Shown: in pieces, positions 6,001-57,800 of the stretch
How the letters are laid out: the number at the start of each line of letters is the position of its first letter
Position numbering within the stretch: the first letter of the stretch is position 1
Origin: an uncultured Verrucomicrobiae bacterium
Lineage (GTDB): Bacteria; Verrucomicrobiota; Verrucomicrobiia; Limisphaerales; JAFGQR01
Direction: 5' to 3'
DNA length: 58,511 nucleotides
Assembly (NCBI GenBank): GCA_963788655.1
Contig: CAWBHS010000070.1
Coordinates: 1-58,511 of the forward strand
Program-made: the position numbers and the translations under genes
Notes under the pieces: model-generated
Told to the model about the DNA's origin: nothing
What the model saw: only the letters and a program-made list of their open reading frames with translations
The model's database searches: none

Positions 6001-7933
6001 GGTGCCCCTGGAAAGCTACGACATCTCGTTCAAGCTGTTGATTGGTGGCGGTAGCGATAATCCGGCCGACGGGATGAGCCTCAACGTGGCGAACAATCTG
6101 CCGACGCCGCCGAACCGTTCAGGCAGCGAAGAGGGCATGGGCAGCGGATTGACGCTCAGCTTCGACATCCATGATAACGGCGGCGTGGTACCGCAGGAAG
6201 CGCCGTCCATTGACCTCAAGTATCAAGGCCAGCTCCTGAGTGGCTTCCTGGCCTCGGTCGCCCAATCCACCGACCCGGCGCAGGATATATTCATCCCGGT
6301 CACGGTAAGCGTCAGTGCCGATGGGCTGGCCACGGTGACCTACGATGGCACGAACGTGTTTGAGAACGTGCCCCTCCCCAACTACCGGTGGCAGAGCGGT
6401 CTGCAACTGGGCTTGGTGGCGCGCACCGGTGGCTTGAATGCCAACCAGTTTGTCGATGACCTGCAGCTCAGCGCCGTGCCTTACGACCCGGCGGGACCGG
6501 AACGCGGTCAGACCGCACAGTTCATCGTCAGCAATGACAATCCGGACCTGTTTGCCGAACCACCGGCGATCAGCCCGGATGGGACGCTGACCTACACGCC
6601 GGCGCCCGACGCCTGCGGTTCGGCGGTGGTGACGGTGGTCCTCGAGGACGACGGCGGCACCGACCTGGGCGGCAGCGACCGCACCGCGGCATCACAATTC
6701 ACCATCACAGTGAATCCGTTGAACGACTCCTGCCCGATCGCCGAAGACCAGATGGTCGCGGCCCTGGCCGGAACGCCGACGCCGTTCACGCTGCATGCGA
6801 CCGACCTCGATAACGACACGGGCTGTGGCGCGGCGCCGTTGAGCTACTGGGTGATGCTGCCCGCGCACGGCTGGCTGTCCGGCACCCCGCCGAACTTGGT
6901 CTATACCTCGGATCCGGGCTACTGCGGAGCGGACAGCTTCATGTATCTGGTCGAAGACACGGCGTGCTTCAACGTGGCGACGGTGTCGCTTGAAGTGCAA
7001 GGCGTCAACCAGTGCCCGGTGGCCAACGCGCAGAACGTGACCACCTGTGAAGACAGCCCGGCGGCCATCGTCCTGACCGGCAGCGATGCGGATGAGAACG
7101 GCTGCGGGCCGACCATTCAAGGCTTCGCGATCGTGGCCAGCCCGACGCACGGCACATTGAGTGGCACGGCGCCGAACCTGACCTACACGCCGGCGGCCGA
7201 TTATAACGGGCCGGACAACTTCACCTTCACGGCGACCGATGGCGAGTGCGTCTCGGTGCCGGCGGTGGTGAGCATCGTGGTGATGCCGGCCAACGATGGA
7301 CCCATCTGCCAAATCTTCGTGGGACCGGTGTTGCGCCTCACGCCCGACGTGGTGGAATCCCTCGTGTTGTCGTGCGACAATCAGACCGCCGAAGTCATGC
7401 TGGACGCCACGCTCTCCAGTGATCCCGATAACGATGGGATGACGTACTTGTGGGCCGTGGACGGCACCCCGGTGGGCAACGCCGCGCTGCAAAGCGTCGC
7501 CATGCAACTGGGCACCCATGAAGTCACCCTCACCGTGACCGACGACAATCCGGGAACCGGTCCCTGCGCGGGCAACGGCACCAGCACGTGCAGTGCGATG
7601 GTGACGGTGATTGACGGCTGCGAAGCGGTGGAAGAGTTGGTGATGCTGGTCCAGGACAACAGCGCGACCATCGGCGCGGACCTCCAGCGGACGTTCAACA
7701 AGGAACTCAAGGACGCGTGCAAAGAGTTCGCGAAGGGCAAGTGCAAGAACGGCGTGAAGCGGCTGCGAGCCTTCCAGGACAAAGTGCGCAACTACGACGA
7801 GTTCTACAAGAAGCCGAGCAAGAAGGTCAGCGCGAAGAAGCGGCTGACGCACGAGACGGCGATGTTGCTGGTGGACGCCTCGCAGGCCTTGATCGACGCG
7901 TATGCGCCGTGTGCCTGCATGGGCCTGCACTAA
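1..7933 (+). CDS. Giant secreted multidomain adhesin/lectin-like protein (lectin-like jelly-roll, 4x [Ig + Ig-like + PA14], cadherin/Big_9-like, PKD, basic helical C-terminal domain); 5' end outside window; frameshifted
   Basis: ORFs 82..5769 and 5369..7933 join by a frameshift near 5625 (ATG..SYGFVPFRTDDGAQFR). Base 1 reads DGVLKLTLNQ, matching DGVLKLTLNV near 5934, so the gene starts upstream, with further indels near 40-75. Four PA14-like repeats (YG.R..G...P..G.Y.F....DD...GGDY) and Ig repeats (QP...YQW..NG..IPGAT). Confidence 0.85.
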
Positions 7934-9486: not shown

Positions 9487-9561
9487 CGTAGTGGCGCCCG
9501 GGCAGAGCGCTGCATAACATACTTTCTCCAGATGGCGGCGCTCTGCCGAGGCGCCGCTACG
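9487..9561. repeat. GTAG-type REP-like palindrome
   Basis: CGTAGTGGCGCCCGGGCAGAGCGCTGC ... GCGGCGCTCTGCCGAGGCGCCGCTACG imperfect inverted repeat just after the sulfatase. Confidence 0.75.
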
Positions 9562-9731
9562 AGTTGGGGTATTTGACGAGCAAGCGTTTCGGGGGATCCA
9601 AGGAACTCCACTTTTACAAACTCCTTACCCAAAGCCGCCGGCGTTGCCCTTATGCTTCACGGTGACCAAGGGATTGCCCGGCGTTCGGCTGGGTGACCCG
9701 AGTGCAAGCAAACTGCGAACAAAAACTGACT

Positions 9732-10328
9732 ATGAAAAATAATGACCTTGTGACCATCGCCACCGTTGCCCTGGGAACCGCGACGCTGACGGTGCTGCTG
9801 TTTGGGTCGGCTTCACTGGAAGCGGGCAATGACGGACCTCCACCCACAGCGAAAATTGCCAAACCCAAATTGGTTTCCCACGGGATCGAGTTCACCCTCG
9901 CCACGCCCAAGGGTCAGACCTTCAAAACCGGCGACGAACCGGTGTTCGAACTCACCGCCATCAATTCCACGAGCGAATCCGCCGAGACGCTGATTCGCCT
10001 GATGATGTCCGCCACTGCACCCGCCAATCCAGTGTCGCGCCTTTTGCCCATGCCCGCGATGCTTTGGCAAGACGAGCAGCAGATAACGCTTAAGCCAAAT
10101 GAAACCAAAGTGATTTCGGTTTCCACGCACACGAAGCTGCCGGCCAATAAGTTGATTGCGGTTGCCTTGCAAGAAACGGATTCGCAACCGCAAACCGCCC
10201 CCGTGACACAGCCGCAAGTCAGTTTGGCAGGGCTTCGGCCCAGCCTGCTGGGGTCGCGGGGTATCACTGCGTTGACGTTTTCCACTATCCCGCCATCGAC
10301 CGCGCCGGCACTGGCAGCAACCCATTAA
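9732..10328 (+). CDS. Hypothetical exported protein
   Basis: ATG at 9732, hydrophobic N-terminus, beta-rich body; no recognised family. Confidence 0.7.
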   Translation: MKNNDLVTIATVALGTATLTVLLFGSASLEAGNDGPPPTAKIAKPKLVSHGIEFTLATPKGQTFKTGDEPVFELTAINSTSESAETLIRLMMSATAPANPVSRLLPMPAMLWQDEQQITLKPNETKVISVSTHTKLPANKLIAVALQETDSQPQTAPVTQPQVSLAGLRPSLLGSRGITALTFSTIPPSTAPALAATH

Positions 10329-10368
10329 TCCGAGTGTTTCATTACCCTTTAAGGTGCCGTTAGACTCT

Positions 10369-10437
10369 GGCCGCCGAAGTAAGGAGGTGGATCAGGATAA
10401 AGCTGCCTTCGGTCCGCCTCGTTACGTCGGCGGCTAC
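10369..10437. repeat. REP-like palindrome (GCCGCCGACGT.AGGAGGCGGA family)
   Basis: GGCCGCCGAAGTAAGGAGGTGGA ... TCCGCCTCGTTACGTCGGCGGCTAC; related copies at 17059-17124 and 54906-54985. Confidence 0.75.
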
Positions 10438-10483
10438 AGCGGTGAATTAGTAGGACAAAGGCGCGTAAGCTGAAAGGCTCCTC

Positions 10484-11719
10484 ATGTTTCGTTGGCAAAC
10501 TTGCGTTGGCGTGGCGATCGGCCTGGTGACTGGCGCCGTCATTCTGATTCTGACGGGCGGTGGCGAGAGACGTACGTCGCCGCTTTCCGGGCCGATCCTC
10601 TCGGAGTGTGACGGTCACCTCCGCGAACTGGTGATTCACTACGAACCGTCCGCCAAAGAAATCGTGACCCCGGTTTATCGTGACTTCCTGGGTGCGCTCC
10701 AACCGGACGTTACGGTCCATGTTATCTGTCCCAATCGGGTCGCGTTCGACGATTTGGCAACCACAATAGGAGACGCCAAATGCCGCCTTAATCCAGTGAT
10801 TGTTGGCCATCCAATGACTACATGGTCGCGAGATCGTTGGGTGGCATTGACGCCCGCAGCCCATAACCGGGCGACAACCCTCTGGAGTCCCCGCAGTGAG
10901 GCCGCCGAGGAAATCTGGCCGGCGCGCGCGGGAGATGAGCGCGTGGGACAAGACATTGCCCGGGCATTGACGCCCTCGGTCCGGGCGCGTCGCAGCAGCC
11001 TGTATTTCGATGGCGGTGATTTTCTGGCTGACGGCGAAAATGTCTTCGTGGTACCGAGACTTTTGCCACGCAACTTGCAGCACACCGTGCGCAACCGGGC
11101 AGAGTTGCTAGCGACCTTGGGTGCCGAACTCAAACGCCGAGTGATCTTGCTGGAGGAGTCGCCAGATCATCACGCCGCCATGTTCATGGTGGCCGCCGGT
11201 AATCGCCAAATGCTCGTCGGCGATCCGAGTTTGGGAAGAAAGTTGATCTTGGCCGAACGGAAGACTGAGGACGGCAGCGTGACAACTGGTTTCATGAACC
11301 TGCCGGGCGGTGCCGACTTCACCGAGGAAACACAGCATTTGTTCGATGCCGTGGCCGTCCAATGCGCAGCGCTGGGTTACCGCGTTGTTCGGCTCCCAGT
11401 CGTGCCCGCATGCGATAGCCGAACGTATTTGACGTATGTCAACGTGCTCATCGACCAGCAGGGCCGGCGTCGCATTGTGTATTTGCCGTTCTATCGCGGC
11501 GCTGAGCTGCTGAACGAGACCGCCCGTACCGTTTGGAAAAGCCTCGGCTACGAGGTCCGCCCCGTAGATTGCACCAGCACCTACCGGCACTTCGGCTGCC
11601 TTCACTGTCTGGTGAACGTGATCCGCCGGGACCGAGCATCACTCGGTTACACGAATGCCCCTCCGAGCAGAGCTGCTACCGCGAGGCAGCATGTCTTTGA
11701 CGCCTTGGGAAAAAGCTAG
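10484..11719 (+). CDS. Pentein-fold (amidinotransferase / agmatine or peptidyl-arginine deiminase-like) protein with N-terminal membrane anchor
   Basis: WSRD, DGGDF, TYVNVL and C-terminal GCLHCL motifs. Confidence 0.75.
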   Translation: MFRWQTCVGVAIGLVTGAVILILTGGGERRTSPLSGPILSECDGHLRELVIHYEPSAKEIVTPVYRDFLGALQPDVTVHVICPNRVAFDDLATTIGDAKCRLNPVIVGHPMTTWSRDRWVALTPAAHNRATTLWSPRSEAAEEIWPARAGDERVGQDIARALTPSVRARRSSLYFDGGDFLADGENVFVVPRLLPRNLQHTVRNRAELLATLGAELKRRVILLEESPDHHAAMFMVAAGNRQMLVGDPSLGRKLILAERKTEDGSVTTGFMNLPGGADFTEETQHLFDAVAVQCAALGYRVVRLPVVPACDSRTYLTYVNVLIDQQGRRRIVYLPFYRGAELLNETARTVWKSLGYEVRPVDCTSTYRHFGCLHCLVNVIRRDRASLGYTNAPPSRAATARQHVFDALGKS

Positions 11720-12029: not shown

Positions 12030-12400
12030 GCGTTTGTTCTTTCGTTTTTGCCCAAGCGTAGAACGAGGGGTGGGACAAAGGCGGTCCAAGCCCAAAAGAT
12101 TTTTGAAGTTTTTTTGGGTGAGGTTTTCGAGCGCGGGGCAGCATCGAATACCACCGCCAAACCGCCCCGGAGCCGGCAAGACGGCAGTTGTATTTACTCC
12201 GTTGGTGCCCCTGGCAACTGTACTGCCGGCAGTTTGCAACGTACGCCTTGAAGAAGGCCCAACGGCCAAGGCCCACGCACCAGAAAAGGTCCGAATGCTC
12301 AAGGCCCAATGAAAGCGTGGCAGGCTCATCGGTACTCAGCTTGGCGCTTGGGATTTGGTCATGCTCTGGCCGCCGAGAATTCGCGCATCCAGCTTTCATT

Positions 12401-12555
12401 CGTTTCTGCCGGCGGGACGCCGACAGCACGCTGCCCAACGTGCTGCCAGCATCCTGCCGGCAGTTTGGAACGGGTCGTTCAAATGTTGACCGGTTCACCG
12501 ATTCGAACACAACGCTTGTTTCCGTTTCTGCCGGCGGGACGCTGTCGGCACGTTG
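12401..12555. repeat. MITE/REP-like ~120 bp element (full copy 12436-12555 plus preceding right end)
   Basis: CGTGCTGCCAGCATCCTGCCGGCAGTTTGGAACGGGTC ... CCGTTTCTGCCGGCGGGACGC...GCACGTTG; second copy at 19288-19406. Confidence 0.8.
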
Positions 12556-12720
12556 CCCTGCCCCTGTGGCTAGGAGCCTCCACTCGGCTTGCGGAGGCGA
12601 GAAATGCGTCTGCTTACAATGGTGGCGGCTCACTTTGCCAAGTCCGGCAGGAAAACACACCGGCTGAACCTGACCAGGATTCGCTATGGGTCAAAGTTGC
12701 CGTGTGAGGGCCAATGGAAC

Positions 12721-13122: not shown

Positions 13123-13624
13123 ATGAAAACCTTTTCTTTCGTCGATTCCCCAAGTCTCAACCCTTGGACCCGCCGCCGATTTCTGCTGACCGTGGGCGGA
13201 AACCGCTCGCGAATGTTTGATCGGCGCCCATTGTTCCTGCCCCACGCGGCTGTATGGCTTTGACCAGAAACCCGAGCGTTACGACATCATGCACCATCAC
13301 GGCAACCGCGATGCCGTGCCCCGGCCGTATTGGCGCATCGGCCAGCGCGTGACCGTGGCCGACGTGATCCTGGCCAGTAAAAATGATCTGACCAAGCAGG
13401 GCACCGACGGCACCCCGCAGATGGTGATTTCCACTGGGTCAGTCGTGGACAATGTCGCCGTGCCCCCGGCGGGTGGTTGCGTGGTTTCGGTGATGGTCCA
13501 GCTCGATACCCAACCCGACCTGCTGACCTACCCCGGATTCCACCAGTTGTTTTTCTACGGCGACTATAAGAAGGAACTCCTGGCCTACTGCAAATTGTTC
13601 GGCATCCAGCCGGTGGTGGCGTAG
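13123..13624 (+). pseudogene. Internally deleted Tat-exported protein (C-terminus resembles sugar-isomerase-like hypothetical proteins)
   Basis: ATG 13123 encodes MKTF...WTRRRFLLTVGG (twin-arginine signal), then joins out of frame at about 13195 to a C-terminal fragment (ETARECLIGAHCSCPTRL...GFHQLFFYGDY). Confidence 0.65.
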
Positions 13625-13639
13625 GGGGGACGGGGACGG

Positions 13640-13670
13640 GATGCCGGATGCCAGATGCTGGATGCCGGAT
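13640..13670. repeat. Short heptamer tandem repeat (GATGCYR x4)
   Basis: GATGCCG GATGCCA GATGCTG GATGCCG; same unit as 50211-50452. Confidence 0.85.
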
Positions 13671-13675
13671 CTGGC

Positions 13676-13728
13676 GTTTGGAGTCCCGCCTTCAGGCGGT
13701 GGGGCGTTGCCGCCTAAAGACGGGACTG
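13676..13728. repeat. REP-like palindrome (GTTTGGAGTCCCGCCTTCAGGCGG family)
   Basis: Inverted repeat; a near-identical copy lies inside the SNF2 gene at 48845-48905. Confidence 0.8.
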
Positions 13729-19161: not shown

Positions 19162-19287
19162 TTAGTCAATAAATTCAATAAATTGTTTTCGGCAGCATGG
19201 TAACGGCGGAAAAGCGAAAGGGAAGCGGGAAAACGGCTACCAATGATTTTTTCTGAGGCAATTGGGGGCGGAAGCATGGGGATCCAT

Positions 19288-19406
19288 CGTGCTGACGGCA
19301 TCCTGCCGGCAGTTTGGAACGGGTCATTCGAATGTTAGCCCCACCTGGAACCTTCGAACGCGACACTTGCGTCCGTTTCTGCCGGCGAGACGCCAGCAGC
19401 ACGTTG
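19288..19406. repeat. Second copy of the ~120 bp MITE/REP-like element
   Basis: Aligns end to end with 12436-12555. Confidence 0.8.
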
Positions 19407-19443
19407 CTTGTCCCGCTTGGCACCATCTACCACGACGAGCATT

Positions 19444-27451: not shown

Positions 27452-27548
27452 AAGTTAGCAAGGGATAGATTGCCTCCCAACAAAAATTCTTTTCCTGACC
27501 GGCGATTGGAGTGCAAAAAGAAACCCCGCCGTAATGCCGTGTGGTAAC

Positions 27549-27562
27549 TGTTCCATTGAACA
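27549..27562. promoter_or_regulatory. Candidate LexA (SOS) box TGTTC-N4-GAACA
   Basis: TGTTC-CATT-GAACA about 100 bp upstream of rarA; matches the motif described for verrucomicrobial LexA. Confidence 0.55.
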
Positions 27563-27941
27563 CTTCGAAACAGGGTGGAACCGGCTTGCTGACTTTCGAC
27601 TTCCAGTCAAGGCCTGTCGGCCATCAACAGAGCTAAGGTTCCTTGTCTTTATTTAACTACGGTTCAAGGACTTAGTTTCGAATCACGCGCATGGGCAGGG
27701 TTAAATCCTGTCAATGTCTCGTTTGCAAAGAACTCGGCGCACTTTGGTTATCCCTAATCGCGTCAACCGTGTGCGTCGGCGACGAAACCAACTATCGTCA
27801 AAGGCACTTTCGGAAGCAAGCCAGAAAAGTCACTTTAGTTTGGGTGCCGCCGCAAATTGGGCATAGAATCTGTGATCCATTAAGCTGGCTAACCACCTTG
27901 CGCTTTATAAGAATGGAAAACTTTCAAAAACGGAGTTTGTT

Positions 27942-41110: not shown

Positions 41111-43128
41111 CTATCGGAGCATCAAAAAATGGTTCCACAGAGCCGGCAGCAGTCGCGTTTCTAACTCGGTTGGCAGGAAACCTTCGGTGATCAGCGAAGC
41201 GTTCCCGAGGTTGACGAGGACCAGCACTGGATGTGGGTGGCCCGTGTGTTGAAACGTTCGGACGAATACAAGAGATGGCGCACCTGCCGCGTTGCAAGGC
41301 CGCGAACTCCAAGAAGCTGCTGCCGGTGCCACCAGGCGAAAAGTTGGCCAAAAGCCTGCTATTGGTTGCCTATTCACTAAGTAGTTGGTCGGCGTGGCAC
41401 TGTGCGTGAGGCGAAAACAGCCCGCATTGGTCGGTCCCCAAAGCGCCTCGGGGAAGCTGAACGATAAGGTGGTGGTCAACCCGTAGGCATTCGTGCTCGT
41501 GGTGTAACCGTTCAACAAAAAAGTCGCCCATTCATTGCTTTGGTTGGGCCGGGGAATCGGCAGATAGATGGTATTCGTTAATCCCCAGGTATTCTTGTCG
41601 TAAACCGCAATGGCAATGGCGTTGGTCGTGTGCGGTTCGGGATCACCGGCATAGACCCCGAAGTTGTATTGCTGCCCGCAATAAAGCGCCGTTCCCCCCA
41701 CCCGGCTGCCGAACCCAGCAATGGGGCTCGTGAACGCGATAGGTTCATCGTGATAATGGTTGTTGTAGTGTTCCAGAACGTCGGTCCAAAGGTTGGTCTG
41801 AAAGAGCACGTCGGTATTGCCGCCTTGCGGATATAGCTTAACGCCCTTCTGGCCATCGAGGGGGATGACGAAAGAAAGATATGTTTCGTCATAGCCATAG
41901 CCCCGGATAAAACGAGTGTGACGGGCCAAAGGATTCGGCACCCCCGGCGGCAGAATCGTCAGTCCCTCGACGGCAACGGGAACGAATCGATTTTGCGTCG
42001 TGTCGTCCCCCACCTCGCCATAATAATTGTTCCCACACCCCCAAACGGTCCCGTCGTTTTTCAGGATTAGGGAATGAGCGCCGTCGTCGGAATAGTCAAA
42101 GTAGCCCCCACCGGATGCGATCGCCAAGCCGTCGCTAAAACGGTCTAATCGTACGGGAACTGTGTTGCTGAAGGTTGCAACACTCCCATTCTCTCCGGTA
42201 GTGTTCCACCCCCAGGCCCATACGGCTCCGTTGGACTGGAGGGCGAGGGAGTGGTACGCCGCTGCGGCGATGGCCGCCACGTTTGAGAGCCCGACGACCG
42301 GCACCGGCGTCAGGCGGTCAATCGTACTACCGTCGCCAAGTTGGCCGGTTCCGTTCCACCCCCACGCCCAAACCGTCCCGTCGGACTTGAGGGCTAACGA
42401 TGAAACTCTCCGCCCGAAACGGCGACGACATTTGATATGATGCTCGCGAGCACCGGAACGGAGCTGTTGTTGGTCGAGCCGTTACCCAGCAGTCCGTAGC
42501 CGTTCCACCCCCAAGCCCACACAAACCCATTGGACACCGCCAGCGAATGATACCACCCCGCTGCAATGGCGGTCACGTTGGCCAGGTTAACCACCGGCAC
42601 CGCGTTGGAACGGTCAGCAGTGCTATTGTCTCCCAACTCGCCATCTTCGTTATATCCCCAGGCCCACACAAACCCATTGGACAGAGCCAACGAATGGTAT
42701 CCGCCGGCACTGATTTGACTCATGTTTGTCAAGCCGCTGGTCTGCACCGGCTCAACAGCTTCGTTGAGAGATCCATCGCCAAGTTGCCCTTGATGGTTAT
42801 GCCCCCAGGCCCACACCGTCCCGTCCGACTTAAGCGCCAGACTGTGCTGCCCCCCCGCAGCGATGCGGGTCATGTTCGTTAATCCGTGGACCAGCACCGG
42901 CACGGCCCGGTCCTCATAATTGCCGATGCCCAATGATCCATCATAGCCGTAACCCCATGCCCAAACCGTGCCATCGGATTTGAGCGCCAAGCTATGCCAC
43001 CCACCCGCGCTCACCGCGGTGGGTTGCGGATAATCGCTGGCATCACTAGCCAAACACGAGAACACCAAACAAAAAACCGCAAGCGCCATGCATACGCCAC
43101 GCCATTGAAAGATTTTCAGAGTCTTCAT
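41111..43128 (-). pseudogene. Secreted RCC1/BLIP-II repeat protein, frameshift near 42400, apparently 3'-truncated near 41380
   Basis: Signal peptide, about 7 repeats of HSLAL..DGTVWAWG.N..GQLGDG, then a non-repeat domain (ARHTRFIRG...SFVIPLDGQKG) that switches abruptly to atypical sequence after TPTNY. Confidence 0.75.
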
Positions 43129-43132
43129 ACGC

Positions 43133-44375
43133 TCACTCAATGGTTGTGCCGTTGGCCGGCGCCTCGATGGTAACGACCAGATTTGAAACAGCCGGATTGG
43201 ACGGATCGGCATCCTCCCAGTTCTTCACCCCATCCCCGTCCCAATCATCCCCTTCTTCGGCGCGGAAAAAGCCGGTGTAGTTGGTCAGCGGCATTGTGAA
43301 ATTGGTCTGCCCCATGGTGCCGATGATCGCCGTGCTCCAGTACGAGGCGGGCAGGACCGGGCTGAACAACAGATTGTAGGCTTTGTTGGTCTCGCCATTC
43401 TCCAGCGTCAGATTCACATTGGTGCCCGAAAGCTCCGGCGTCAGAAAATAAAAGCCGGTTTCCAGCTCCAGCAGCATGGGAATCATGATTGGCTTTTGCG
43501 CCAGCAATCCCGCGTCGCGCAGGGCTTGCAACTGTGCAGCTTGTTGCGCCCAGGCCGCATCTTCCACCGGCGAGATGGGGCCTTTGGCGGCCGTATCTCG
43601 GGTGGCCTGGTAATACCAGGCGAATCCTGTTTCCCACGCCGGTAGTTCGCCGGCAAACGTGGTGAATTCCTCGATCTGCCCGGCGGCAGCACTGCGACCG
43701 GAAGCGTCCGAGCCGATGACCAAGCTGGTCAGACCCGCCGTCGCCATCGGCACACTAGGAACTCCCTCGCCCAGCGCAGCCAACTCGCCGTCGATCCACA
43801 GCGAGGTTTCCTCGGAGACCATACGACAAGGCCACCAGATGCCAACTATTGTCCCAGGAAATGGATGCCTTCAAGTAGTCCACCGGTCCCGATGCCCCGT
43901 CGCCACTGAGGTAAATTTGGGTGCCATCCGGCGAGAAATACAACGACCAGAAAACAACGGGATGCTTTTTGTCCGTGGCGGTGATTAACTCCGCCAGCCG
44001 GGCGTAGTGTCCCGGCCCGCCGTTGGCCATCACTCCCGGCGCGGTCCATTCGCTTTTGTACCAGAATCTAATGATGCCGGCGTCCGGGGCCACGTTCCAT
44101 TGCTCGGCCGTGGCCATGGGCATAATACGGGTTGCAAATGATCATCCTGCCGGTTCAGGGGCATAACCGCTCCAGCTCTCCACCCACGTTGAAGCGTCAA
44201 TGCTGGGGCTGGGTTCAGTTCCTGGGGGTAACGTATATGGTTCATCGAACGTCAAGCGTTGCAGAAAAACTTCCGGCCAGGGCGGCAGCGGGGGACGGGG
44301 CCGCGCTGAAGATAGCAGCGGCCAGCCGGCCAGTGCCGCCATCAGCATTGGGGGGAACAACCGTTTGGGATTCAT
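43133..44375 (-). CDS. Secreted LamG-like jelly-roll protein (several frameshifts)
   Basis: RBS AGAAAGGA, signal peptide, IRFWYK, WHLVALSY, SLWIDG, LVIGSD, GQIEE, and a Ca-binding-like DWDGDGVKNWED; assembled from ORFs 44142-44378, 43755-44123 and 43133-43822. Confidence 0.75.
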
Positions 44376-44440
44376 CAACTGATCCTTTCTCCATTGACTG
44401 CATGTTAACCTCAGTGGCGTTCAAGCGGGCGATCCTCATC

Positions 44441-44631
44441 CAACAAACAAAGAGGCGCACACCCGCGCACCTCTTTGGAAGGCACCGACCAAGGCGCCCG
44501 CACACGAAGCGCGCAAGGCGGCGCCCATCTGGGCGTGCCTTGGCGTTTCGCCTCGTGTGCAAACTTCTCCCTTCGCGTGAAGAGAGTTGGTCGGTTTTTC
44601 CAACGAGACTCGTAGCTCGCCAAAAGCTACG
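44441..44631 (-). ncRNA. Candidate structured 5' leader RNA (three-way junction plus terminator-like hairpin)
   Basis: Five helices readable by eye; four contain G-U pairs on the minus strand that would be A-C mismatches on the plus strand; ends about 65 nt before the LamG start. Confidence 0.55.
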
Positions 44632-45055
44632 CAAATGATCAAATTCCAAAGAACTATTACCTCACAGACCGCTTTCTATGGGGAAGCAGTTGCTTGGAAG
44701 GATTCCTGAAATGACTGACGCTAGAAATCAAGAACTATTTTTGAATATTATTGGTGGCCTTGCTGCATGGGCTGCTCGGATGTCGTAAGCAGCGTGTCGG
44801 GACTGGGCTCAGAAACCGAAGCCCGAAATCCCAACCAAAACCAGATCTGCTCCGTAGAAACCCGAAACGGGCACTGCTTTTAGAAATCCAACTTCAGACT
44901 TGGTACCGAATTCCAGCCTTCGGTCAGCCGATTTTTGAACCAGCTTATCCCGGCGTTACTTTTCGGTAACGTTCCCGGCGAGGGAAGCGTCTGTTAAAAA
45001 GGTGCCGAATTGGCGCCGGAATTCACAAGCAACAACCAAAACCAAAACGCTACCA

Positions 45056-45758
45056 ATGAAAGAAAAAACACTATTCTGCATGGCCGCCTTACTGGTTGGC
45101 TCGATGGCCGTCTATGCCGGCCCCAAAGAAGACGTTTCCCAAGCCGCGAAGAAACTTGCCAAAGCCGGCACTTACACCTGGAAAACCACGACGGAAGGCG
45201 GTTTCCGCACCGCCGCGCCGACCGTTGGCAAAATGGGGAAAGACGGGATGGCGGTTATTTCAATGCCCCGTCGCGACACCACCATGGAGATCGTGATCCA
45301 AGGTGAAAAGGCGGCCGTCCAAACTCAGGATGGCTGGCAGTCGTTGAGTGATCTGGAAAACAACACCGAGCAAGGGAATCGCGGCCGCTTTCTGGCCATG
45401 ATGGTCCGACGGTTCAAACCGCCGGCAGCCGAAGTCGAGGCTCTGCTCAAACAAGCCGGGGACCTGACGATGGCCAACGAGAACCTGTTCCGGCAAGCTC
45501 ACCGCAAGCGGCGTCAAGGAGATGCTGACCTTCCGCCCTCGCGGGGGCGGCAGCGGTCCCGAAGTAAGCAACCCCAACGGCTCCGTGAAATTCTGGGTGA
45601 ACAACGGCCGGCTGACAAAGTATCAATACCAAATCAAAGGCACCATGTCCTTCAATGGCAACGAACGGGAAATTGACCGCACGACCACAGTCGAAATCAG
45701 CGACGTAGGCTCGACCAAAGTCGCAGTGCCCGAAGCAGCCAAGAAAAAGCTGAGTTAA
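45056..45758 (+). CDS. Exported hypothetical protein (frameshift near 45490)
   Basis: Signal peptide, YTWKTT...; C-terminus GSVKFWV...DRTTTVEISDVGSTKV.VPEAAKKKLS is in a second frame. Confidence 0.75.
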
Positions 45759-46457: not shown

Positions 46458-46637
46458 GGACAGGATCGCTGGGTAGCCCGAAAGCCGAATTCCAAATTCA
46501 AAAGGTAGGGCCTTTGGGGGAACCGCCGCCCCGCAAACCTTCCTCGATTTGGCGCACTTCGGAATTCGGGCTTCGGGCTTCTTTCGAAACTCGGAATCTG
46601 AATTTCGGATTTTTCGATGGCTCTTTTGCCAAAGAAG

Positions 46638-46666
46638 TTGACAAGCAGGCGGAACCCTTCTAATTT
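46638..46666 (+). promoter_or_regulatory. Sigma70 promoter of tRNA-Ala
   Basis: TTGACA-17bp-TAATTT ending 17 bp before the tRNA. Confidence 0.65.
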
Positions 46667-46683: not shown

Positions 46684-46759
46684 GGGGTCGTAGCTCAGTT
46701 GGCAGAGCACTTGAATGGCATTCAAGGGGTCAGGGGTTCGACTCCCCTCGGCTCCACCA
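46684..46759 (+). tRNA. tRNA-Ala (GGC)
   Basis: 76-nt cloverleaf, G3:U70 identity pair, anticodon arm CTTGA-ATGGCAT-TCAAG, GTTCGA T-loop, encoded CCA. Confidence 0.97.
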
Positions 46760-46889: not shown

Positions 46890-49800
46890 ATGGCTGTGGT
46901 TGAACTAACCGAAAAATTTCTGGGTCAAATCGCCGGCTGGCAGGCCATGCAAGAAGCGCGCGCCCTGCTCCAAACCGGTCAGGTGCTCAGCTCGAACTGG
47001 ACTCCGCCGGTGCTCAAAGGTTTTGTCCAGACCAGTGCCACGTCCTACCGGGCGGGACTGGTTATCAAGGACGCCGTCAATGTGGACAACTTCTGCACCT
47101 GCCGGTCTTCGCGCGAATGGGGTACCATCTGCGCGCATTCGGTGGCGGTGGGCTTGCACCATTTGAAATCGGTCGCTTCCGCGGTCGCAGCCGTTAAGGA
47201 AAATGGAAAGCAAGACCGCAGCGGGCGACAACCCCCGGCAGCTACCAAGCCCGCGGGCAAACGATTGTTGCGCGCGGAAAATGACGCCGCCGGCGAACCC
47301 TCGGAAATCTTTATCATCCTGCCGCCCAATCTCGAATCGGCTGTGGCTCGCGGCAAAGTCATGGTCTATTTCGAAGGCGCCTGGAGCCGCGGACGAACGC
47401 CACTCAATTCCCTGCCCCAGCACCAGGCGTTCCGGTTCTCCCAACAAGATCTGGCATTGCTGGACCATATCGAACACGTTGCCGAAGGTGACACTCCGGC
47501 GGCGCTGATGCTCGACCCCCAAGGATTCGTAACGCTGCTCAACGTGTTGACGAAACATCCCCGGGTCACCCTGGGCAAAGCCAAAACGGTGACCGTCAAC
47601 GACCAACCTCATGCACCAAAGGTCAAAGCCACGTTGGAAGCCGACGGTTGTATCACGTTGACTTCGGTGGACCGGATGGCAGTGGCGCCCTGCGTCATCG
47701 CGGGCCAATGGATTTTTCATCAGCAAACGCTTCAACCCCTGGGCTCCATGGCCGGCGCGTCCCCGGCCATGGAAGGCGGACGGCGTCGGCTGTCGCGAGC
47801 GCAAGTGCCGTCGTTCTTAATGCAGGACTGGCCACGCCTGGTCGCCAGCGGAGCCCTTGAAGCAAACTTTCGCCCGGAGGATTTCACGCTGGCAACGCAA
47901 GCCCCGCGATTCCTGCTGCACCTCGCGGGAGGACTAGCGCAGTTGCAAGCCCAACTCCAATGCGCCTACGGCCCGCGCATCATGACGATCGGCGTCACGT
48001 CCGAGGCCGAGGCCCTGTGGTTGCCCGATCCGACATCACCGACCACCTACAGTACCCGCGATGTGAACGCAGAACGGGCGGCCATCGCGCGTTTGGTCCG
48101 CAATGGTTTTTCGGCGCCGGATGCCCAGGGCCGCCTGCAGTTGCACGGGCAAAACGCGGTGTTGAATTTCTTCGCCCGCGAGTTTGGCCAGTTGCAACGC
48201 GAGTGGGAAGTCACGCTCGAGGAGCGCCTCGAACGCAGCACCGCCAAAAACCTGGAACGTCTCGAACCCCGGTTCGAAATCAACCCTTCCGGCGTGCAAT
48301 GGTTCGACTTGGGCGTGGTCTTCGAGTCGCCCAGCGGAGAACGATTGTCGCCCGCGGACATTCAGCGCCTGATTCTCTCCGGACAAAGCCACCGCCAGTT
48401 GCGCAACGGCAAGTTTGCCCTCATCGACACCGGCGCGGTTGAGGAGTTGCAAGAGGTTTTGCGGGACTGCTCCCCGCGGCAGCACGAGCAGGGGTATCGC
48501 TTGCGGAACACTCAGGCCGGATTCCTTCAAGCGACTCTGGAAGAACAAGGCTGGCAGGCAATCTCGCCGCCCACCTGGCGTGAACGGGCGCGGCAACAAA
48601 GCGGCGCGGCCGAATTGGAGTGCCCGCCACTGGGCGAACTCGACGATGTGCTGCGTCCGTATCAAAAAGCCGGCGTCGCCTGGTTGCACTTTTTGCGGGC
48701 CAACCATTTCGGCGGCATTTTGGCCGACGAAATGGGCTTGGGGAAAACGCTGCAAGCGTTGGCGTTTGTGCAAAGTGCAATGGGTCGGTCACCGGCGGCT
48801 GAAGCAGGCAACGCGGTTGATTCGTCGCAACGCGGACGCGACACGTTTGGAGTCCTGCCTTCAGGCGGCACAGCGTCCAAACCACCTAAAGGCGGGACTC
48901 CAAACCAGGCTTCCCCAACCGGCTCCGAGCCGACTTCGCCCGCGGAAGGCCAGCGGAAGGGCGGCCCAACCTTGATCGTCTGTCCCACGTCGCTGGTGTT
49001 CAACTGGGTGGCGGAGGCCAAAAAATTCACCCCACACCTGAAGGTGCTGGCCTTACAGGGTTCGAATCGGCAGACGCAATTTGCCGAGATCGCACAGTAC
49101 GATTTGGTGGTGACCAGTTACGCGTTGATCCGCCGCGATGCGGAACATTACCGCGACGTGGAATTTGACACGGTCATTCTCGACGAAGCCCAGCACATCA
49201 AAAACCGGCAGACCCAAAATGCCCAGGCGGTGAAGGCGGTTCGCGCCCGGTATCGGTTGGTGCTCACCGGCACGCCGTTGGAGAATTCCGTGCTCGACCT
49301 GTGGTCAATTTTCGATTTTCTAATGCCCGGCTATCTGGGCACGGCCCGCGACTTTCGTGAGCGTTACGAAGGGCCGATCACCCGCGACAAAAACGAAGCC
49401 GCCCAAAGCCGGCTGGCGCGGCGCCTGCGTCCGTTCATCCTGCGGCGGACCAAACGCGACGTGGCGCCCGATTTGCCCGAGCGCCTCGAACAGGTGGCCT
49501 ACTGCGAATTGACCGACGATCAGCGCGGCGTTTACCAGCAGGTATTCGAAGCCACCCGCCGCGAAGTACTGGCCGCCGTTGGCGATCAGGGCCTCGCGCG
49601 CAGCCGGATGATTGTGCTGAACGCGCTGTTGCGGCTGCGCCAGGTGTGCTGCGACCTGCGGTTGCTCAAGTTGGACCAAGTCAATCCCGCCACCGCTTCC
49701 GGCAAATTGGAGCTGTTCAGCGAGTTGCTCGAGGAAGTGCTCGATGGCGGGCATCGGGTGCTGGTGTTCAGCCAGTTTGTCAGCATGCTGACGTTGCTGC

Positions 49801-50204
49801 GCGAGAAACTGACGGCCGAACAAATCGAGTTTTGCTATCTGGACGGTTCGACCAAAGACCGCGGCGCCGTGGTGGAACGCTTTCAGCGTCAAGCGAGTAT
49901 TCCGGTGTTCCTGATCAGTTTGAAAGCCGGTGGATTGGGACTTAATCTGACCGGCGCCGACACGGTGATTCATTTCGATCCGTGGTGGAATCCCGCGGTG
50001 GAAGCCCAAGCCACCGACCGCGCTCATCGCATTGGCCAAACGCGCGTCGTCACCAGCTACAAGCTCATCACTCGCGATACGGTCGAAGAAAAGATCCTGC
50101 GCTTGCAAGCCCGCAAACGGGAAGTCATCCACGCTACGCTAGGAGGTGAAAAACAATTGGCCGAAGCCCTGACGTGGAAAGAGATTCAGGAGTTGCTGGC
50201 TTGA
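46890..50204 (+). CDS. SWIM zinc finger / SNF2-family helicase
   Basis: CTC...CAH SWIM motif, LRPYQ, LADEMGLGKT, DEAQHIKN, LTGTPLEN, FSQF, QATDRAHRIGQ. Confidence 0.95.
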   Translation: MAVVELTEKFLGQIAGWQAMQEARALLQTGQVLSSNWTPPVLKGFVQTSATSYRAGLVIKDAVNVDNFCTCRSSREWGTICAHSVAVGLHHLKSVASAVAAVKENGKQDRSGRQPPAATKPAGKRLLRAENDAAGEPSEIFIILPPNLESAVARGKVMVYFEGAWSRGRTPLNSLPQHQAFRFSQQDLALLDHIEHVAEGDTPAALMLDPQGFVTLLNVLTKHPRVTLGKAKTVTVNDQPHAPKVKATLEADGCITLTSVDRMAVAPCVIAGQWIFHQQTLQPLGSMAGASPAMEGGRRRLSRAQVPSFLMQDWPRLVASGALEANFRPEDFTLATQAPRFLLHLAGGLAQLQAQLQCAYGPRIMTIGVTSEAEALWLPDPTSPTTYSTRDVNAERAAIARLVRNGFSAPDAQGRLQLHGQNAVLNFFAREFGQLQREWEVTLEERLERSTAKNLERLEPRFEINPSGVQWFDLGVVFESPSGERLSPADIQRLILSGQSHRQLRNGKFALIDTGAVEELQEVLRDCSPRQHEQGYRLRNTQAGFLQATLEEQGWQAISPPTWRERARQQSGAAELECPPLGELDDVLRPYQKAGVAWLHFLRANHFGGILADEMGLGKTLQALAFVQSAMGRSPAAEAGNAVDSSQRGRDTFGVLPSGGTASKPPKGGTPNQASPTGSEPTSPAEGQRKGGPTLIVCPTSLVFNWVAEAKKFTPHLKVLALQGSNRQTQFAEIAQYDLVVTSYALIRRDAEHYRDVEFDTVILDEAQHIKNRQTQNAQAVKAVRARYRLVLTGTPLENSVLDLWSIFDFLMPGYLGTARDFRERYEGPITRDKNEAAQSRLARRLRPFILRRTKRDVAPDLPERLEQVAYCELTDDQRGVYQQVFEATRREVLAAVGDQGLARSRMIVLNALLRLRQVCCDLRLLKLDQVNPATASGKLELFSELLEEVLDGGHRVLVFSQFVSMLTLLREKLTAEQIEFCYLDGSTKDRGAVVERFQRQASIPVFLISLKAGGLGLNLTGADTVIHFDPWWNPAVEAQATDRAHRIGQTRVVTSYKLITRDTVEEKILRLQARKREVIHATLGGEKQLAEALTWKEIQELLA
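48845..48905. repeat. REP-like palindrome embedded in-frame in the SNF2 gene
   Basis: GTTTGGAGTCCTGCCTTCAGGCGG ... CCACCTAAAGGCGGGACTCCAAAC; matches intergenic 13676-13728. Confidence 0.85.
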
Positions 50205-50210
50205 AGGGAG

Positions 50211-50452
50211 GATGCCAGATGCTGGATACCAGATGCGATACCATCTGGATACCAGATACCAGATGCTGGATACCAGATGCGATGCGATGTACCAGATGCT
50301 GGATGCCAGATGCTGGATGCCAGATGCTGGATACGCGGATGCCAGATGCCGGATGCCAGGATGCCAGATGCCGGATGCCAGATGCCACGGATGCCGGATG
50401 CCAGATGCCGGATGCCGAGATGCTGGATACCGGATGCTGGATACCGGATGCC
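50211..50452. repeat. Heptamer tandem array, consensus GATRCYR, roughly 30+ units
   Basis: GATGCCA/GATGCTG/GATACCA/GATGCCG units immediately after the SNF2 stop. Confidence 0.95.
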
Positions 50453-50590
50453 GACGGGCAGGTCAGCGGGTCTTTTCAGAACCTGGCTCGAAGGTTCAGG
50501 ATTATTCGTTATCGAACGGTTAGCGCGACCGATGCGAACGCGGGCACCAATGGTCGTGGCCCATTGGGAGTGCATCCAACACTTGCTCCT

Positions 50591-54872: not shown

Positions 54873-57800
54873 GAATCATTTGCTCGTTCAGCATGGCCAT
54901 ATTTTGGAGGAGAAGACGTTAGGAGTCTCCAACAACTTTTGTCTTTTTGCGTTTTTATTTCGAGCCTTCTTACCTCGTCTCCGACGGGGTGTCTGGCGTG
55001 CTGACCCTCCACGATTTTGATCTCGTCCTCGGTCAGGCCGTAAAGATCATAAACCAGGCGGTCAATTTGTTGGTCGGTGGCGGTGGTCTGACGTTCGAGC
55101 GAGGTCTTCTCCTGCGGCGTCCGCACGACGCCCAACTGCTGGTGCAGCGCCAACATCTGTTCGACCAGCTTGACCATGTGATCGTGGTGCAATTGGTCAG
55201 CGACGTTGGAGAAATTGATGACACGGATCGGCAACTGGTCGAGATCGACTTTCTTGACCTGAGCAATGCTTTTCTTGTTAGTGACCGATTTAGCGCGGTA
55301 GTAAGCGGTGAGCAAACGGGAGTTAAGCAGCCCAAGAAGATACTTAAACTCCAAGTCGGACTGGTTGTTGAAAAGGAAATACAACGACTGCTCCGGAAAG
55401 ATTCCGGAATCGTCAAACGTAGCAATGATCGTGTCGCCTGTCTTTCGAACCAGAATCTTCGGGATTGCGCCGAGCTTCCTTGGTCTGTGGTTCGTCCCGT
55501 GATGTTCTCTGGACGAAAATCGAACCAATACTGCTTCTTGAGTTTGTAGCGACCAATGCTGTCGCCTTTCAAGGTGGGAATCTCGCAGGGCTCAGTTTGA
55601 GACGCATGGATGAGACACGATTTTCCTCCGAATCCGGAAGTAGATTCACAGACTTGCCCAAGTGATTTGACGACCGAACGAGAAGAAACGGCCGTGACCA
55701 AAGACATCACTTCGGCGTTCTCAAAATACTCGAAAACGTGACTTGGATGCTGAAGAAGTTCAGACTGTTTTCGGCTGATAGGTTTTCGATCGAATTCGGA
55801 GATGGCCACTGTCCAATCACTGGTTGGATTAGTACTCTGGATCACGAAAGCGAGAGTATCAGCCGTAACCCCCGGAAACGGCACCTTGTAAAGCAGCGAG
55901 CCAATCCGCGCCTCGGTGAGAATTCGTTTTCGAAGTTGCACAAACTGTGCGTTGTATCCTAGCCGGTCGGGAACAATGAAGCTGAACCAACCGTTCGGCC
56001 CGACTAGATTCAAACCCTGAGCAACGAAATACTCGTACATGTTTGGCATGTAGGTGTTCCCTTGGAAATGAGAAATCAGGTAGGCGATCTCTTTTTTTGA
56101 GTGGATTTCATTCCCGAATTTGCCCGACAGCGAGATCGATGGAGGATTGCCGATGACGGCGTCGAAGCCACCGGCCTGCATGGTTTCTGGGAACCCATCT
56201 GCGCCTGCCAGTCGAACACATTAATGCGGTCAAGTTCGTCTTCGTGAGCAACGTCATCTCCTGCTGTTGATAGAAATCCGGGCCGATGAGCGAGTTGCCG
56301 CACTTGATGTTGTCGCCGAGGTCCGGCAGGGCGCGTTCCTGGAAGATGCGGAAGAACGTCTGGAGGGTCTGCTGGGTTTCGCCTTCCAGCACTTTGAGCA
56401 GGAGGGAGAGCTTGGTGACTTCCACGGCCTGCGCGTCAATGTCCACGCCGTAAATGTTGTCCGAGCAGAATGCGTTTGCGCTCGGCGATGGTGAGCCGCC
56501 AGCCCTGGCGGGTTTGCACGAGCACGGGTTGCCGCCTTTGGCCCATTTGGCCGGGTCGTTCGCCAGTAGAACTGCAGGTGCCAGTCGAGCAGATATTGAT
56601 ACGCGCCAATGAGGAACGAGCCGCGAGCCGCAAGCAGGATCGAGGACGCGCAATTTGGAGACGCGGTTGAGGATGGCCGAGGCGGTTCGCGGATCGCAAG
56701 GAGACGACGTGAGGAGTGCGCAATCTTGGCACCGGAAGTTTGAGATCGTCTCCGGCTTCGGACTCCTGTCCGGATTGGATGGCACTTTAGTGGCTGCATT
56801 CCTCATCAGTTTCCCCACCGTCTGCCTGACGATGTATTCGACGATGTAGGTGGGCGTGTAATAAACGCCGCCGGCCTTTTGACCTCCGGTTTGTCCTCGA
56901 CCACCGCGCGGTGGCCTTCGGTCAGCCGGATGACTTTGCCGAGAAACTGCTCATAGACCTGGCCGAGGATGTCGGCCGGAGAGGACGGAGAACTCGTAGG
57001 GACTGTCCGGATAATAAAGACCTGCGAGCAGGTCTCCGCAGAAGTTTGTCGTCGAGTGTCGAGGTCGAGCGTGAGTTCATCGGGCGCTTCGTGGCGGCCC
57101 TTTTCCCGCTTGAAGTGGAACAGGCCGGAGTTGTAACGGGAGTCGGCTGCTTCAAACAGCTGGACAGAGTCGCGGGTAGATGCGGTCGCCGTTGACCAGG
57201 GCACGGAGGCGACCGTAATCCTCGATGCCGCGGTCTTCGCAGATACGCAGGAAAATGATGCGGTCGATGATGCGTTGGACGGCGAAGTTGAGTTCGCGCT
57301 GGGTGAGTTTCGGATTGCGCAGCGCGAGGTTGCGGGCGAGGTCCGAGCGCCAACTTTCGATTTCCGTCAGAAAGGCCGCATCCACCTCCGCCGTGCCCCG
57401 CTTGCGTTTGGTCGATTCGGCAAATTTGTCGAAGGAACCTTTGAGAACGGCGTCGCGGGAGAAGATGGAGGCGAACTCACGCCCATTTCTCGGCGAAGTT
57501 CTGAAACGTGCAGTAGAGGATACGGGCGGTCGCCGGCGAATCGTCCTTGACCGGTTTGAATGCGGCAGTCATAGACGGCGAACTCCTCGAAATCGGAAAG
57601 GATGCTCAAGGGCAGCTTGGCCGACCAGGCGTAGCGACGAAGTTGGTAGGCCGGCGTCGGTTCATCCTTGATGCGACGGAAGGTTTCTTGGCTTCGAGGA
57701 AGAATTTGCGCGTGCCGCCGATGCGGAAGCAATAGTCGGGCGCCTTGAGTGGCGCCGCCAATGTGGATGGCGTCTTCGTGGATAACGTCCTTGTAGGCTT

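Follow-up and report, generated by a model that had tools for sequence, protein, structure and literature searches.

The described systems closest to the RNA element analysed here are Rho-independent attenuators and riboswitch platforms, terminator-ended small RNAs, retrons and the REP/BIME or MITE repeats, and the element shares part of its design with each. It occupies about 190 nt (44441..44631) on the minus strand of a contig from an uncultured Verrucomicrobiae bacterium, upstream of a LamG/RCC1 gene cluster; throughout, the window is the whole stretch of DNA that was analysed, 58,511 nt (58.5 kb) long. As in attenuators and riboswitch platforms, a structured domain in what would be the 5' untranslated region is followed directly by an intrinsic terminator, the 3' strand of the central helix P1 is contiguous with the terminator arm, and a competing terminator-free fold exists. 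Unlike those platforms it has no sensor domain that Rfam recognises, and its candidate antiterminator is an unusual 1:3 arrangement that encloses the whole core and is statistically weak. In contrast to leader-peptide attenuators, it has neither a leader peptide nor a ribosome-binding site for one. Terminator-ended small RNAs, including those derived from 5' untranslated regions, resemble it in being intergenic, about 190-200 nt long and built of several stem-loops with a strong U-tailed terminator; the element differs in lacking a recognised promoter, an apparent conserved seed and a match to a small-RNA family. In the msr-msd region of retrons, flanking inverted repeats bracket the short hairpins of msr and the long one of msd, and P1 likewise forms inverted repeats around a short (P2) and a long (P3) hairpin. 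However, what follows the element is a terminator and a LamG-family gene, not a reverse transcriptase, and a retron was rejected on finding no reverse-transcriptase domain by Pfam in 50 ORFs (13 neighbouring and 37 further). REP/BIME or MITE repeats are also clusters of GC-rich intergenic hairpins, and such families occur elsewhere on the contig, but the element has no second copy in the window or in 80 comparison loci, its G-U pairs are strand-asymmetric and its T-rich tail is one-sided. No known family fits, and on present evidence the element is an orphan candidate of a familiar kind, either a structured leader or a small RNA with a terminator. The reading we favour, with a probability of roughly 0.4, is that it would be the 5' leader of the LamG/RCC1 cluster, acting as a terminator-based transcription attenuator.

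All five helical parts reported in the first-pass annotation, which was made from the sequence alone on the minus strand (P0, P1, P2, P3 and a terminal hairpin), are present at the coordinates given there, and the minimum free energy (MFE) fold from ViennaRNA has the same architecture. At the 5' end lies the P0 hairpin (44631-44624 / 44618-44611), in which 8 bp close a 5-nt loop; it is seen in the sequence and when folded separately. P1 consists of an outer segment, P1a (44603-44598 / 44480-44475), and an inner segment, P1b (44595-44587 / 44492-44484), both evident in the sequence and in the MFE fold, and it closes a three-way-junction core (44475..44603 in the MFE folds) around P2 and P3. The pairs that the MFE folds give for P1a are 44602-44598 / 44480-44476. 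Within the MFE fold, P2 (44586-44579 / 44574-44567; 8 bp, 4-nt loop) stacks directly on P1b, and P3 (44496..44564; read from the sequence, 44560-44500) is a near-perfect hairpin of about 25 bp with a 4-nt loop and, at its base, a weak extension rich in G-U pairs. Only about 0, 2 and 3 bases are left unpaired at the three-way junction. The intrinsic terminator (44441..44477), recovered by both the terminator scan and the fold, comprises a hairpin at 44477-44448 and a T-rich tail. The 3' strand of P1 is contiguous with the 5' arm of this hairpin and some bases are common to both, an overlap that counts for an attenuator. Homopolymer indels occur nearby in the assembly; they were counted against the attenuator reading, and small details of the RNA may be wrong.

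The fold is exceptionally stable, and it belongs to the minus strand. Positions 44430-44640(-) fold at -112.9 kcal/mol in ViennaRNA compared with -78.9 +/- 4.7 kcal/mol for dinucleotide shuffles (z -7.2), and 0 of 200 shuffles are as stable. Folded alone, the P1-P3 core reaches -72.3 kcal/mol (z -6.5) and the terminator hairpin -21.9 kcal/mol (z -5.6), in both cases with 0/200 shuffles as good, and P0 reaches -10.5 kcal/mol (z -3.2, 1/200). We also scanned the contig in 200-nt windows that advance by 50, covering each strand with 1,167 of them and regressing energy on GC content. The window 44451-44650(-) ranks first of about 2,330 (z -5.23), the plus strand at the same position scores z -2.81, and the second independent site is a repeat cluster at 12401-12600 (z -3.5). 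The plus strand of the element folds at -91.5 kcal/mol (z -5.4), making the minus strand more stable by about 21 kcal/mol. The 70 pairs of the minus-strand fold are 41 G-C, 21 A-U and 8 G-U; P0, P2, P3 and the terminator all contain G-U pairs, P1 contains none, and on the plus strand every one of the eight would be an A-C mismatch. The earlier observation that four helices contain G-U pairs only on the coding strand thus holds for 8/70 pairs, set against about 2 A-C oppositions on the minus strand (from the fold and reading by eye). Both the exceptional fold and its strand bias count for a leader acting as an attenuator.

Several open reading frames cross the element, and none has the marks of a gene. 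Their GC content is flat over the codon positions (0.57-0.62), that is, there is no coding periodicity by this measure; five real genes in the window have 0.45-0.51 at position 2 and 0.65-0.73 at position 3. The 68-aa minus-strand ORF over the RNA has 0 relatives, and the 168-aa plus-strand ORF finds only P0017, which is the window's own predicted protein. P0017, a public prediction of 166 aa (44138-44638(+)), runs antisense to the LamG start and spans the RNA; it is a gene-calling artefact, probably enabled by frameshifts in the LamG gene. A trp-type leader-peptide attenuator was rejected: the only ORFs that cross the leader start with TTG, encode 68-135 aa, run through the entire structure and have flat codon-position GC, and none has a Shine-Dalgarno sequence on reading by eye. 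The strand-biased fold and the flat codon-position GC are therefore best read as a non-coding minus-strand RNA, and the non-coding status of the region counts for the leader and attenuator reading.

The terminator scan describes a 13-bp stem with 7 G-C pairs, a 4-nt loop and a tail that starts TTTGTT. By sequence and predicted fold it is a canonical intrinsic terminator: the stem is GC-rich, the loop is short, and a U-rich tract follows directly on the 3' side. Its inner pairs have an ensemble probability of >0.99. Read on the plus strand, the hairpin is weaker (-15.5 kcal/mol) and has no T tail, and this restriction of the tail to the minus strand counts for the leader and attenuator reading. 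The same scan of 44200-45200 gives 3 sites, a number not above that of its shuffles (mean 2.2), but this one site is strong all the same. A spacer of 65 nt (44376..44440(-)) separates the tail from the ATG at 44375, in line with the distance of about 65 nt estimated earlier, and a Shine-Dalgarno-like purine run (44392-44383(-)) stands 7 nt upstream of this ATG. Its position 65 nt before a confirmed start codon, on the same strand and ahead of the first gene of a cluster, again counts for a leader with an attenuator.

That gene (43133..44375(-)) encodes a LamG-family protein (Laminin_G_3) with a signal peptide. The family assignment comes from the relatives P0012-P0016 (414-429 aa), which all carry PF13385; in Pfam, the LamG pieces encoded in the window itself stay below threshold (E 0.013). 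The closest relative, P0012, is 89% identical over residues 1-188 and 84% over 190-415, and its N-terminus is nearly identical to that in the window, which confirms the start codon at 44375. In the window the gene is broken by three single-base indels, of which two fall in short homopolymers separated by 30 nt and one at CC: an extra C in a C run and a missing A in AA near 44160-44115, and an extra C at CC at ~43815. The divergent neighbour gene has one frameshift (~45500-45540), and the indels in the two genes could be sequencing errors or real decay. Overlapping ORF pairs elsewhere on the contig, such as 82-5769 with 5369-7933 and the Eco57I-type methylase pieces at 55033-56818, suggest further indels. 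The second gene of the cluster (41111..43212(-), in two ORF pieces) encodes an RCC1-repeat protein that likewise carries a signal peptide (Pfam RCC1 and RCC1-like domain, E 1.6e-50 and 3.4e-53). It is followed on the same strand by genes for a 142-aa signal-peptide protein, a discoidin-domain protein and a PMT_2-type glycosyltransferase, which brings the cluster after the element to five genes, the LamG-family gene first. The first-pass annotation had called this a secreted-effector operon. That label finds no support here: the downstream genes encode LamG-family, RCC1-repeat and other signal-peptide proteins of no assigned role.

The element lies within a 680-bp intergenic region that separates the LamG-family gene from the divergent neighbour (45056-45758(+)), a member of an uncharacterised secreted-protein family. 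Beyond that neighbour are a DUF59 gene, a tRNA-Ala gene and an SNF2 helicase gene. The contig is chromosomal, and its gene content includes MnmA, RNase Y, transketolase, MgsA, an ABC transporter, sulfatases and large surface proteins.

From these observations we infer that the leader would be transcribed, would switch and would respond to an effector. The minus strand would be transcribed through the element as the 5' leader of the LamG/RCC1 cluster, and in the emerging RNA P0 would form first, then the very stable P1-P2-P3 junction and then the strong terminator. The default outcome would be a short RNA of about 190-200 nt with little transcription of the downstream genes, and read-through would depend on a factor able to reshape the terminator at its base. 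This might happen by either of two routes: P1 could lengthen at the expense of the first few bases in the terminator 5' arm, or that arm could be captured by the 5' arm of P0. A protein or a second RNA would be a likelier remodelling factor than a small metabolite, and the few unpaired junction bases leave little room for a ligand pocket, which argues against small-molecule sensing.

The second route has a candidate antiterminator strand at 44622..44637(-), consisting of the P0 5' arm and bases upstream of it and weakly indicated by a constrained fold; 44637-44622 pairs with the 5' arm and loop of the terminator (44475-44460). In the resulting terminator-free fold the antiterminator helix encloses the core and the freed 3' arm of P0 forms a hairpin with the linker. 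Scored with the terminator 3' arm constrained to be unpaired, this fold has -99.6 kcal/mol compared with -106.6 kcal/mol for the terminator form, a difference of 7 kcal/mol. When co-transcriptional folding was followed in prefixes ending at 44462 and 44455, in which the terminator 5' arm is out and the 3' arm is absent or partly transcribed, the terminator-free fold is the MFE structure. The low cost of this fold and its place as the MFE in two prefixes count for an attenuator, and the layout of the two predicted folds is as expected of one. Against this, the antiterminator duplex (-15.1 kcal/mol, shuffles -10.4 +/- 2.4) is matched by 92/2,000 shuffles, so that the complementarity is marginally above chance and the switch pairing is at best tentative. 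The cis-regulatory role first proposed thus survives in part: the element is strand-specific, structured and non-coding, has a terminator and lies 5' of the first gene of the cluster, but the pairing that would make it a switch is marginal (92/2,000).

The terminator form is the clear winner in the thermodynamic model, which fits constitutive termination, i.e. a small RNA. In that case the element would be a stand-alone RNA of about 190-200 nt that acts in trans or binds a protein and ends at its own intrinsic terminator, and the LamG gene would be served by a separate unrecognised promoter or by incidental read-through. This explanation accounts for the data about as well as a leader does, and we hold it possible, if somewhat unlikely. 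It gains from a terminator that is very strong (13 bp, -21.9 kcal/mol, T-rich tail) and dominates the ensemble, from a body that is almost wholly base-paired, as in many protein-binding or processed RNAs, and from the weak support for the switch; the 680-bp divergent intergenic region also has room for an independent transcription unit. However, the RNA has no obvious long single-stranded seed regions, and the 80 comparison loci hold no homologue that would show it moving independently of the LamG gene.

Promoters bear on both explanations. A standard promoter scan of 44200-45200 finds no minus-strand promoter-like site, and a relaxed scan finds none above 7/12 either upstream of the element or between the terminator and the ATG. 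The first of these gaps speaks against a small RNA with a promoter of its own, as does the second against a separate promoter for the LamG gene; with nothing above 7/12 between terminator and ATG, the genes would be reached via the leader. The scans assume sigma-70-like rules for the phylum, an assumption that rests on one tRNA promoter: the tRNA-Ala gene (anticodon GGC; 46684-46759(+), Rfam match 46684-46756) is preceded by a canonical TTGACA-17-TAATTT at 46638-46666(+), which indicates that sigma-70-type promoters are in use in the organism. That no promoter above 7/12 lies upstream of the element despite this canonical example counts against a leader too. On the plus strand, the scan finds no promoter-like site directed into the element, and the earlier suggestion of an antisense target is left unsupported; the sole plus-strand promoter-like site is at 44722-44751. 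An ORF that overlaps this site, 44678-44788(+), is probably spurious; it would encode 36 aa (25 aa from an internal ATG with a purine-rich motif before it) with a hydrophobic C-terminal half.

Less likely than either of these is that there is no functional RNA at all, and that DNA palindromes clustered here, for instance as a REP- or MITE-like relic or as neutral local hairpins, sit by chance beside an ordinary terminator-like hairpin. We consider this improbable. Other palindromic families do occur on the contig (12380-12556, 19284-19407, 9487-9561, 48845-48905 and others), P3 comes close to a perfect palindrome, P1 could pass for the terminal inverted repeats of a unit of about 127 nt, and the plus strand is, at z -5.4, significantly structured as well. 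Set against these are the excess of G-U pairs over A-C oppositions on the minus strand (8 and about 2), the confinement of the T-rich tail to that strand, and flanks in which no target-site duplication is seen on reading by eye. Copy number points the same way. The contig's repeat families recur in the window, but the element has no second copy there: further blastn matches are at most 15 nt long (E >=0.94). A single-sequence covariance model of 193 positions and 70 pairs, run with its default speed filters (which may lose weak matches), recovers in the window the element alone, together with a plus-strand match of P3 at 18.5 bits. Plasmid and phage collections likewise contain no match to the element.

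For comparison beyond the window, genomes were searched with an alignment of 8 relatives of the divergent neighbour gene (45056-45758). This confirmed 179 relatives, of which the best 80 were used, ranked against a metagenome relative and not against the window. The 80 loci comprise 1.19 Mb, nearly all titled as Verrucomicrobiota, Verrucomicrobiia or Limisphaerales metagenome-assembled genomes. They are non-syntenic with the window: none has the window's DUF59 or LamG gene beside the neighbour-gene homologue, one (L008) has a weak SNF2 match, another (L038) has an RCC1 match 9 kb off, and their neighbour-gene copies share at most 49% identity with that of the window over the N-terminal part. 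LamG paralogues are absent from them at E up to 0.01. In these non-syntenic loci blastn gives two matches of 20-23 nt (E 0.21-0.74) and no homologue of the element, nhmmer gives 0 matches, and the covariance model scores no foreign sequence above 15.4 bits (E 1.3), in alignments from which the whole core is missing. The strong hairpins that stand before the neighbour-gene family in several loci were rejected as relatives, being an unrelated GC-rich palindrome behind a different upstream gene. The lack of a copy anywhere in this 1.19 Mb argues against a dispersed repeat, and the lack of a homologue in 80 related, non-syntenic loci also counts against the attenuator reading.

The contig carries several other repeats. 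A GC-rich palindromic family at 12380-12556 and 19284-19407 has 3 copies with a 55-nt unit and 28-nt arms, and palindromes with a similar 'GCCGGC' core stand behind genes in related loci, e.g. L015, L016 and L029. A tandem or dispersed repeat with a unit of about 14 nt (GGATGCCAGATGC-like) occurs at 50187-50459, immediately beyond the SNF2 helicase gene, and recurs at 13623-13680, a distance of 36 kb. Within the SNF2 helicase ORF, an inverted repeat at 48845-48905(+), with 24-nt arms that are 88% complementary, lies in the low-complexity linker between the N-terminal and helicase domains and looks like a palindromic element tolerated in frame. The intergenic flanks of the neighbour genes (44800-44880 and 46475-46579) contain 'CCCGAAA / TTCGGG'-type repeats and an inverted repeat with 22-nt arms, which make up another small repeat family. 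Finally, intergenic hairpins with 27-nt arms at 9487-9561 and 10365-10439(+) lie upstream of the ORFs 9693-10328 and 10484-11719; the second has a Shine-Dalgarno-like AAGGAGG in its 5' arm, and the 200-nt windows of both are in the top 13 of the fold scan.

Searches of Rfam bear mainly on a further alternative, that the element is a metabolite- or ion-sensing riboswitch with the P1-P2-P3 junction as aptamer and the terminator as expression platform, which we consider very unlikely. With the 4,227 models of Rfam 15 at gathering thresholds, the whole window yields only tRNA and 6S RNA and the element is unmatched. Relaxing the cut-off to E 10 for 44300-44800 brings up 5 matches of 13.8-16.1 bits (E 0.46-6.6) where thresholds are 35-70; the best of them, RmaA (16.1 bits, threshold 57), covers only the terminator portion, and no riboswitch is matched at either setting, consistent with the initial impression that the structure resembles no recognised riboswitch. 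The location in a 5' untranslated region, the P1-closed three-way junction whose 3' strand leads straight into the terminator 5' arm, and a terminator-free fold within 7 kcal/mol would all suit such a switch. However, with about 0, 2 and 3 unpaired bases the junction is tightly paired, and such a junction beside a hairpin as long and nearly perfect as P3 is unlike known riboswitch aptamers. The downstream genes, moreover, encode neither transporters nor biosynthetic enzymes. The element is not the 6S RNA either, as that of the contig is elsewhere (27519-27704) and 44300-44800 has no 6S match at E up to 10. The 6S RNA itself (27519-27704(-); RF00013, 57.9 bits, threshold 46.4) precedes the genes for MgsA and a 5-formyltetrahydrofolate cyclo-ligase, which share its strand.

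A bolder form of the attenuator-leader reading would make the element a new class of structured cis-regulatory RNA in Limisphaerales-type Verrucomicrobiota, with a three-way-junction sensor and an enclosing (1:3) antiterminator that respond to a protein or ligand and control an operon of LamG/RCC1 surface or secreted proteins. Taken as a whole, this proposal strikes us as quite unlikely. The parts of the literature that were covered contain nothing on structured leaders of LamG genes or on Limisphaerales non-coding RNAs.

Regulation in uncultured Verrucomicrobiota is almost unexplored, and their genomes contain large families of LamG-like secreted proteins. If the element is unconserved, it would be an orphan hairpin cluster of little general interest. 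If, on the other hand, it proves to be conserved with covariation, it would represent a new RNA family and offer a handle on how such gene clusters are switched.
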